Shown piece after piece: positions 59,540 through 60,442 of a stretch of DNA of 60,442 nucleotides (position 1 is its first letter; each line of letters begins with the position of its first letter). The translations under genes and the position numbers were made by a program. Source of the DNA: Acidaminococcales bacterium (GTDB lineage: Bacteria > Bacillota > Negativicutes > Acidaminococcales > JAISLQ01); assembly GCA_031290885.1 (NCBI GenBank), contig JAISLQ010000012.1, positions 1 to 60,442 of the forward strand, in the 5' to 3' direction. The notes beneath the pieces are model-generated. The model was not told where the DNA came from. It saw only the letters and a program-made list of their open reading frames with translations, and made no database searches.

Positions 59540-60008
59540 TTGCCCCGCCCCCCGTCCTTTGCTCTTTTATATGGCGTATCCGGCGCTGGATGAACTCCGG
59601 GATATACTGCCCGTAGCCCAGTTTGTCGACATTTTCCAAAATGGAAATGGCTTCGTTGGCGGAATAGGCGCAGATGGCCATGCTGCGCAGAACGTGCGTG
59701 CCCATGCCGCAGTCTACAAGGTTGCAGAAAGACACTACCCCCAAGATGGCCGCTTTGTGGCCAATGCCGCGCCTCCCCGCGCCGGAGTTGAGTTCCCCCG
59801 CTTTCCCGGCGGCGGCGATGCCGGTGATATAGTCGAGTGTCATTAGTATGGCAAGGGCGTGCAGGGCGTTGTCGAGTCCGCCGAACAGGAAGCTCAAAGC
59901 CGCCCCAACGGACGCGCCAATTCCCATTGCCGCCTGTTCCGGGCGGCTTTGCGGCAGGAGCGTTCCTGCCGCTCCTTTAAGCGTCGTGAAAAATTCTTGC
60001 AGCGTCAT
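59532..60008 (-). CDS. phage holin (holin_4 / toxin-secretion holin family)
   Basis: LMTLDYITG, LNS..GRRGI.HK, NEAISILEN; overlaps the amidase start. Confidence 0.9.
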   Translation of the reverse strand: MTLQEFFTTLKGAAGTLLPQSRPEQAAMGIGASVGAALSFLFGGLDNALHALAILMTLDYITGIAAAGKAGELNSGAGRRGIGHKAAILGVVSFCNLVDCGMGTHVLRSMAICAYSANEAISILENVDKLGYGQYIPEFIQRRIRHIKEQRTGGGASD

Positions 60009-60080
60009 TTTGTTTTCAGTCCTTTCGTGCGTTGTTGTTTCCGGGCATGAAAAAACCCCATGCTTTGGGCAAGGGGCTTG

Positions 60081-60089
60081 TGGTATAAT
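60081..60089 (+). promoter_or_regulatory. extended -10 promoter for the type I toxin mRNA
   Basis: TG-G-TATAAT. Confidence 0.7.
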
Positions 60090-60189
60090 GCTTTTAAGGC
60101 GTTGCGATAACGGTAGGCGGTCAATCCTGCCCCGGAAACGGGGTGATTGACCCGTCCTCGAATGGGCGAGCTTGCCTCGCCGGAGAGGG

Positions 60190-60258
60190 GTGGACTATTA
60201 CAAGCTGGTGTTTCTGCTGGTCTTGCTTTTAGCCGTGATAGTTGCTGTAAAAAAGTAA
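60190..60258 (+). CDS. 22-aa hydrophobic type I toxin peptide MDYYKLVFLLVLLLAVIVAVKK
   Basis: GGAGAGG RBS, GTG start, one TM helix with terminal KK; below the ORF-track cut-off. Confidence 0.75.
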   Translation: MDYYKLVFLLVLLLAVIVAVKK

Positions 60259-60295
60259 CTAACCGCCATTCCCTCACAAGGTAGCGGTTAGTTAC
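60249..60295 (-). terminator. intrinsic terminator of the antisense RNA
   Basis: Minus strand GTAACTAACCGC...GCGGTTAGTTAC followed by TTTTTT. Confidence 0.8.
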
Positions 60296-60341
60296 TAACC
60301 AAAACTGTACGGGGCGGCCGCTTATCGGCAACGCCTTTTCT
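60249..60341 (-). ncRNA. putative antisense antitoxin RNA (about 90 nt)
   Basis: Bounded by a consensus promoter and an intrinsic terminator; overlaps the toxin stop codon and 3' UTR. Confidence 0.7.
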
Positions 60342-60347
60342 ATGCCC

Positions 60348-60376
60348 ATTGTACCCTGTTTTTTAAGGGCTGTCAA
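60348..60376 (-). promoter_or_regulatory. consensus promoter for the antitoxin RNA
   Basis: TTGACA (60376-60371) - 17 nt - TACAAT (60353-60348). Confidence 0.85.
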
Positions 60377-60442
60377 CTGCCCGGCCGTTTTGCCCGCCGG
60401 CAAGCTACGCCGGCTGTTCCCCCGCATTGTTGCCTTCCGCCG

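Follow-up and report, generated by a model that had tools for sequence, protein, structure and literature searches.

In a window of 60,442 nt, which comprises an entire contig of an Acidaminococcales genome (assembly of 2.13 Mb in 85 contigs), we annotated, in an interval where gene callers had placed nothing, a toxin ORF, an antisense RNA and two promoters. Together they read as a type I toxin-antitoxin module organised in the manner of bsrG/SR4 from Bacillus subtilis, an interpretation to which we assign a probability of about 0.72. A preliminary description of this DNA had proposed a type I toxin-antitoxin locus, and at the level of sequence the proposal holds: related loci retain a short ORF with a coding signature, a covarying fold that hides the Shine-Dalgarno (SD) sequence, and a convergent promoter with its terminator. 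Systems of this kind and their probable mechanism are familiar, and the finding would not surprise a specialist; we read the module as a real, undescribed Negativicutes branch of that kind. We found no description of type I systems in Negativicutes or Veillonella in the literature searched, and neither the T1TAdb paper nor Fozo et al. 2010 mentions these groups.

On the plus strand, an extended -10 element (TGgTATAAT, 60081-60089, with no clear -35) precedes the predicted toxin mRNA, and TGnTATAAT or a close variant occupies the equivalent place in most of 41 relatives. The mRNA was delimited by the match to a covariance model of the family, R1 (60094..60345, model positions 1-222; 104.8 bits, E 8e-24 per genome, full model covered). 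The 247-nt plus-strand RNA folded with a minimum free energy (MFE) of -108.8 kcal/mol (z -5.6), beating 200 of 200 shuffles. Its ends are joined by a closing helix, P1, identified in an inverted-repeat search and in the folds. The 5' strand of P1 spans 60096..60122 (AAGGCGTTGC, a GATAA bulge, then CGGTAGGCGG and onward), and its 3' strand spans 60312..60337. TTTTCT comes next and probably terminates the toxin transcript; on the minus strand the DNA of the 3' strand encodes the 5' hairpin of the antitoxin. Positions 60096-60105 are exactly complementary to 60328-60337, and bulged pairing continues to about 60122/60312. Next in the leader is SL1 (60119..60152, seen as an inverted repeat and in the MFE fold), the hairpin that hides the ribosome-binding site, with a core of CCCCG-GAAA-CGGGG (60130-60143) lying within the arms GGTCAATC/GATTGACC (60119-60126/60145-60152). 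The CCCC/GGGG of SL1 is kept in all relatives; SL1 is the ancestral hairpin, extended in the window copy by GGTCAATC/GATTGACC.

Alignment with the paralogs revealed a leader insertion of about 36 extra nucleotides peculiar to the window copy (60153..60189). It brings a new SD, GGAGAGGGG, which pairs with CCTC at 60156-60159 in the MFE fold, and a hairpin (GGCGAG/CTCGCC, 60165-60170/60176-60181) sits just upstream of GGAGAGGGG and the GTG start. The toxin ORF, taken from the list of open reading frames, runs from this GTG at 60190 through 22 codons to a TAA stop (60190..60258, plus strand) and reads (V/M)DYYKLVFLLVLLLAVIVAVKK; its product, VDYYKLVFLLVLLLAVIVAVKK, is nested in a 28-aa ORF with a TTG start. 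The peptide is predicted to be of the short hydrophobic membrane-spanning type, forming a single hydrophobic helix and ending in KK, and it matched no Pfam or NCBIfam family.

On the minus strand, a promoter with the elements TTGACA-17-TACAAT runs from 60376 to 60348 and matches the consensus at 11 of 12 positions; one such site was found against 0.2 expected. A stem-loop at the toxin stop codon (60254..60296) is used twice, as SL3 of the plus-strand RNA and as the predicted terminator of the antitoxin. Its arms are perfect over 13 bp (60254-60266/60284-60296), and the minus-strand U run that comes next is encoded opposite the toxin KK codons (60249-60254). A terminator-scanning program missed this inverted repeat because the loop is 17 nt. 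From the promoter and terminator signals we predict an antitoxin RNA of about 94 nt (60248..60341, minus strand), fully complementary to the toxin 3' UTR and last codons, with a folding energy of -37.4 kcal/mol (z -3.9, beating 200 of 200 shuffles). As far as gene signals go, an antisense gene complementary to the toxin mRNA is therefore present.

The preliminary description had listed the extended -10, the leader hairpin, the GGCGAG/CTCGCC repeat next to the ribosome-binding site, the 5'-3' fold-back and a 22-codon transmembrane peptide on the plus strand, together with the TTGACA-17-TACAAT promoter, a 12-bp terminator with a U-tract and an RNA of about 90 nt over the toxin 3' end on the minus strand. 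Read directly in the sequence, all of these features were present where it had placed them, the stem proving to be 13 bp long and the RNA, as predicted, about 94 nt; the peptide is further backed by a family-wide coding signature (see below).

Genes annotated as a Phage_holin_4_1 holin and an Amidase_2 endolysin adjoin the module, which is sited directly upstream of the holin gene (start codon at 60008) and is prophage cargo between the contig end and that gene.

A blast search of the same genome identified a second full copy, on contig C36, whose parts follow in the same order and which has a 22-codon ORF (MDTILAIVLVIVATGYILAIKK). It is flanked by the genes of a DUF1492 phage regulator and a large terminase, close to a phage integrase gene, in another prophage of the genome. 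An orphan antisense half was also observed on contig C21 (37540-37700), between purE and a small mobile-looking island. Only the last codons (..AIKK*), the stem-loop, the 3' box and the antisense promoter are found there; the promoter is intact (TTTACA-17-TATAAT with TG) and the toxin leader and start are missing, so that this locus may be a lone antitoxin RNA gene. In a genome of the same genus (G002, an Acidaminococcales MAG), the copy at about 1557-1670 of contig C80 encodes MSCDKLAFLLILLLLLIVAIKK, which aligns with the window peptide codon for codon and thereby supports the GTG start of the window ORF. In this copy the TAA stop is replaced by CAA, a loss that lengthens the ORF from 22 to 37 codons through the stem-loop; C-A mismatches in the plus-strand stem become G-U pairs when the minus strand is considered. 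Either the copy is decaying or it is a variant with an extended C-terminus.

With its GTG start and 36-nt leader insertion the window copy is atypical and may be attenuated. Its GTG follows GGAG by only 4 nt, and its translation may be weak. We therefore weighed the possibility that it is an attenuated or decaying family member in which the antisense RNA is intact and the toxin is poorly or not translated, leaving the locus at most a source of antisense RNA. The close spacing of GGAG and GTG, the insertion and the extra leader hairpins would fit such a state, as would an R1 score below those of the 30 best full-length copies and the decay seen elsewhere in the family, where C21 retains only the antisense half and the G002 copy has lost its stop codon. 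Against this, the window ORF is intact and its product lines up, residue by residue, with the 22 residues of the G002 peptide, and other clades with leader insertions keep intact ORFs. Moreover, the insertion recreates an SD-hiding pairing (CCTC with GAGG), which suggests continued selection on translational control. We consider attenuation unlikely, although it has to be reckoned with, and retain the reading of the window copy as a toxin-antitoxin module.

The distribution of the family was measured in 401 Negativicutes genomes from 110 genera. Using the C36 locus as a blastn query gave partial matches in many families, and the inspected matches shared the same layout with one exception (L030). 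The covariance model R1, built from ten relatives, matched 191 of the 401 genomes and 61 of the 110 genera at E ≤ 1e-3, many of the positive genomes having at least five matches each. About half of the Negativicutes genomes sampled contain, in multiple copies, a bsrG-like type I module that had not been annotated, and R1 can be used together with the peptide consensus given below to annotate such loci. The 30 best copies scored 145-206 bits, and the 104.8 bits of the window copy fell below most full-length copies. In IMG/VR, the family motif was found in 36 viral contigs, every one of which (36/36) contained a full-length R1 match. A consensus-like locus gave no blastn match in collections of sequenced phages and plasmids. 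Exact-pattern scans of viral and genome collections for the 5' box (TAAT..GGCGTTGCGATAACGG) returned only chance matches and the same-genus MAG; the box covaries and is consequently not conserved in sequence. Tandem copies also occur, including those at G655:C7:73483-77736 and in L057, L061, L065 and L073, and the arrays reach five modules in 4.3 kb, resembling the ldr, ibs and aapA type I loci.

The neighbours of the ten top-scoring genomic copies were mostly housekeeping genes (CbiQ, FAA hydrolase, dicarboxylate symporter, LDH, RpoD and Amt), and a few belonged to mobile elements (a serine recombinase, an IS3 transposase, a YhgA-like putative transposase and a Zeta toxin). Members of the family thus reside in chromosomes as well as on phages, and the family is not prophage-specific. 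Since most copies elsewhere lie between such ordinary chromosomal genes, a role of the module in prophage stabilisation or defence is something that we infer only tentatively.

These surroundings also bear on the idea that the peptide is an antisense-controlled small membrane protein that does not poison its own cell and acts instead in lysis timing as a holin accessory, or as a ComI-like modulator of membrane stress or competence. The position of the window module directly upstream of a Phage_holin_4_1 gene would be in keeping with this idea, and related peptides carry the name "holin-like toxin" in Pfam and weakly match the NCBIfam ComI family. However, holin adjacency is not consistent across the family: among the 36 viral contigs, a holin homolog was present in the fetched DNA of four and stood directly beside the module in none, and on these counts we rejected a specific link of the family with holin genes. 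Most copies, moreover, sit between housekeeping genes such as those for CbiQ, LDH, RpoD and Amt, and type I toxin loci typically show multiple copies and tandem arrays of this sort. A non-poisoning role thus appears improbable.

Support for the predicted RNA fold came from the family as a whole. MFE folds of the plus-strand RNAs (about 215-228 nt) share the same parts, namely P1, SL1, the ORF, SL3 and a U-run. P1 pairs the first with the last 25-30 nt or so, has a GAUAA-type bulge and is directly followed by the U-run; in SL1, CCCC pairs with the GGGG of the Shine-Dalgarno; SL3 begins at the stop codon. RNAalifold recovered P1, SL1 and SL3. Across 43 model-aligned loci, 96.6% of cells were paired and compensatory double changes occurred in 20 of 33 pairs (120 cells), counts taken on an alignment fitted to the model, which favours structure, although the margin is large. 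For P1 alone, the same number of relatives gave compensatory changes in 14 of 24 pairs, with about 96% of cells paired. None of 500 shuffles reached any of the pairing measures, and slid partners paired in only 37-54% of cells. The 5' and 3' boxes can be wholly different between clades and are complementary nonetheless, as in GGCGTTGC/GCAACGCC, GGTGCTAC/GTAGCACC and GAAACGTCC/GGACGTTTC. In addition, P1 is rich in G(5')-U(3') wobbles, and 34 transition mismatches were wobble-compatible versus 12 that were not, a bias indicating that the helix belongs to the plus-strand RNA. P1 accordingly does not look like a mere by-product of two similar transcript starts. Nor does the window arrangement look like chance, given that it recurs with compensatory changes in hundreds of loci.

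The short ORF bears the marks of a coding sequence. An ATG ORF begins shortly after the GGGG(G) run, mostly 7-8 nt downstream, in 34 of 41 loci; 31 of these ORFs have 20-24 codons and 25 have exactly 22. Among 23 distinct 22-codon ORFs, entropy by codon position was 1.00/0.52/1.51, so that third positions are about three times as variable as second positions, and on this pattern we take the family ORF to be coding. The peptide consensus is M[TE]LYDFLxLVFLVTICIVA[IL]KA (consensus form MTLYDFLTLVFLVTICIVAIKA), and several peptide types, including KK-ending, ATGY-containing and KA-ending ones, occur on one scaffold. Large insertions in the SL1 loop or the P1 bulge were seen in L106-L110 (GTDB family f2, genus g5) and in L112 (G001:C86), loci that carry different peptides on the same scaffold (MDILEVIALLSLCIACIKLGMEINKNAKK; MIEIIIVLTLILSIIVAIKK). 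The RNA frame appears in this way to tolerate both inserts and peptide replacement. That the element works purely as RNA, as a convergent terminator, insulator or antisense pair with an incidental ORF, would suit its very strong RNA structure, a scaffold better conserved than the peptide and the sharing of that scaffold by several peptide types, but is very improbable in view of the conserved ORF position, length (20-24 codons in most copies), ATG spacing after the SD and hydrophobicity, and of third codon positions about threefold more variable than second ones.

The antisense gene recurs with the ORF. Just past the toxin 3' end, about 33 of 41 loci have a promoter that agrees with the consensus at 10-12 of 12 positions, in most cases across a 17-nt spacer. 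After the core stem, the family averages 6.6 T per 12 nt on the minus strand versus 5.0 on the plus strand, tails being counted from the core stem because the A-run and U-run pair together in RNAfold. In KK-type copies, the antitoxin U-tract is encoded by the lysine codons.

We compared this organisation with characterised systems. According to the published account of bsrG/SR4 (PMC3834814), bsrG mRNA is closed by a P1 helix of nt 1-35 with 232-262, its SD lies in a 4-bp stem of SL1 and its stop codon in the 5' part of SL3, while the SR4 terminator loop makes first contact with loop 3 of bsrG; SR4 promotes decay that depends on RNase III and also makes the SD helix tighter. The architecture of bsrG was recovered in the family: a long P1 closes the mRNA, the SD is in SL1, and the stop codon is at the 5' base of SL3. 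The correspondence with bsrG/SR4 extends to convergent genes with a 3' overlap and to an antitoxin that lies on the toxin 3' end, with a terminator complementary to SL3 and a U-tract opposite C-terminal lysine codons. At the sequence level, bsrG of SPbeta reads CCCCU-AUGAAA-GGGGUG-GGAAA-AUG ACU GUU UAC GAA (MTVYE...) and ends in ...QKKK-UAG, and the Negativicutes family reads CCCCU-GAAA-GGGGGUG-UUGCCU-AUG ACA CUU UAC GAU (MTLYD...). Both thus have a near-identical CCCCU..GAAAGGGGUG motif, 5-6 nt and then AUG, and an N-terminus of the form MT(V/L)Y(E/D)xL is common to BsrG and the main Negativicutes subfamily. The window copy also shares with bsrG/SR4 its location on a prophage.

The differences are equally clear. 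The family peptide has 22 aa and is not recognised by Pfam Hol_Tox, compared with 38 aa in BsrG, and the antitoxin is about 90 nt with its promoter abutting the toxin 3' end, compared with 183 nt for SR4. The family also lacks the separate toxin terminator of bsrG, SL4; instead, a U-run directly after P1 is followed by the antisense -10, and SL4-like hairpins were found only in relatives outside the Negativicutes. The family host, unlike that of bsrG/SR4, is a diderm Firmicute. In such outer-membrane bacteria, 22-residue peptides that are among the shortest of the superfamily may be convenient for asking how small a toxic helix can be.

Searches with curated models gave signals below threshold. 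A scan of the window against Rfam returned nothing significant. No sequence reached the gathering score of the bsrG model RF01412 (55 bits), and the window copy had no match to it at E ≤ 10; its C36 paralog, however, scored 20.4 bits, the best in the whole genome, and relatives scored 16.9-23.4 bits. In 20 other Negativicutes genomes, seven of seven sub-threshold RF01412 matches fell on R1 loci and on the correct strand. Likewise, Pfam Hol_Tox (PF16935) matched neither the window peptide nor the family consensus at E ≤ 10, compared with 1.8e-8 for BsrG itself, and a profile-profile comparison of the family peptides with a Hol_Tox-like set gave a probability of 66% (E 5.5e-5). In the other direction, R1 did not match SPbeta bsrG, and the link therefore rests on the sub-threshold RF01412 matches, on intermediate Hol_Tox loci and on the shared architecture. 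The intermediate loci, L094-L101, belong to other Firmicutes and were reached by R1 at E 1e-5 to 1e-7. They have the same scaffold as the Negativicutes family, including the leader motif GGGCGGTC. They differ in carrying an extra terminator hairpin like SL4 of bsrG and peptides of 25-28 aa that match PF16935, five of seven tested exceeding the Pfam cut-off. By sequence and predicted fold, these loci seem to bridge the Negativicutes clade and bsrG, and homology of the family to bsrG is probable. We conclude that the family is best seen as a distant, shortened branch of the bsrG / Hol_Tox superfamily. Since both curated thresholds were missed and SL4 is absent, we call it bsrG/SR4-like in its working and not a curated member.

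The preliminary description had likened the locus to TxpA/RatA. TxpA has 59 aa and RatA about 220 nt, and in the skin element of B. subtilis txpA is paired with a convergent, 3'-overlapping antisense RNA, as predicted here, and subject to RNase III-dependent decay; both modules also sit on a mobile element. Neither a TxpA-like peptide (about 59 aa) nor a RatA RNA was, however, found: the window peptide has 22 aa and no family match, and RatA gave no match in the Rfam scan of the window at E ≤ 10. The detailed fold match makes SPbeta bsrG/SR4, instead, the closest characterised system. The accompanying suggestion that the peptide family may be new stood in part, in that no Pfam or NCBIfam family matched; its scaffold, in contrast, is related to that of bsrG / Hol_Tox. 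The hok/Sok and aapA1/IsoA1 systems (Proteobacteria, Helicobacter) are alike in that a 5'-3' fold-back keeps the full-length toxin mRNA inert. Unlike in the family, their antisense RNAs target the 5' region or the ORF and 3' processing is needed for activation, and they have no sequence relation to it.

How the bsrG/SR4-like module would work can be outlined as follows. Transcription from the extended -10 would produce a plus-strand mRNA of about 245 nt whose first 27 nt or so pair with the last 27 or so to form P1, with the U-run next. P1 would enclose the SD-burying hairpin, the 22-codon ORF for a hydrophobic peptide ending in KK, and SL3 starting from the stop codon. The minus-strand promoter, immediately past the mRNA 3' end, would drive an RNA of about 94 nt ending at the complement of SL3, and by analogy with bsrG/SR4 (PMC3834814) this RNA would be made in excess from the stronger promoter. 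The loop of its terminator could then contact the SL3 loop and zip along the 3' UTR, and RNase III, again as in bsrG/SR4, would cut the resulting duplex; an RNase III gene is present in the genome of the window. The leader, too, may be remodelled when the antisense RNA pairs with the 3' strand of P1. The closed, SD-masked mRNA would otherwise be stable and poorly translated. If antisense synthesis stopped, for instance because the element was lost or the cell was stressed, translation of the stable closed mRNA would follow, and the peptide would insert into the cytoplasmic membrane and harm the cell.

A bolder extension, which we regard as speculative and unlikely to hold in full, is that the Negativicutes clade represents a reduced, mobile form of the bsrG design, with a single DNA segment performing three tasks on a peptide-swapping cassette. 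In the plus-strand transcript, the 3' strand of P1 would be both the lock of the fold-back and the only terminator of the toxin; transcribed on the minus strand, the same DNA would give the antitoxin 5' hairpin, copying the sequence of the toxin 5' end. The antitoxin and the mRNA 5' end would thus compete for the 3' strand of P1, and binding of the antitoxin would both tag the RNA for RNase III and release the 5' strand for re-pairing within the leader. As a cassette, the scaffold would swap unrelated minimal peptides of 20-24 aa (KK, KA and ATGY types) across this diderm class.

Two further features of the locus were noted. A terminator-like hairpin on the minus strand (AAGCCCCUUGCCCAAAGCAUGGGGUUUUUU, 60046-60079; -14 kcal/mol, no better than shuffles) lies between the toxin promoter and the holin start codon at 60008, and minus-strand transcripts that passed the antitoxin terminator would meet it ahead of the holin gene. 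A 140-codon open frame on the minus strand (60005-60427) spans the whole module. We took it as spurious in view of its overlap with both RNA genes; most probably it is an artefact of GC-rich sequence, one that automatic annotation could mistake for a gene.
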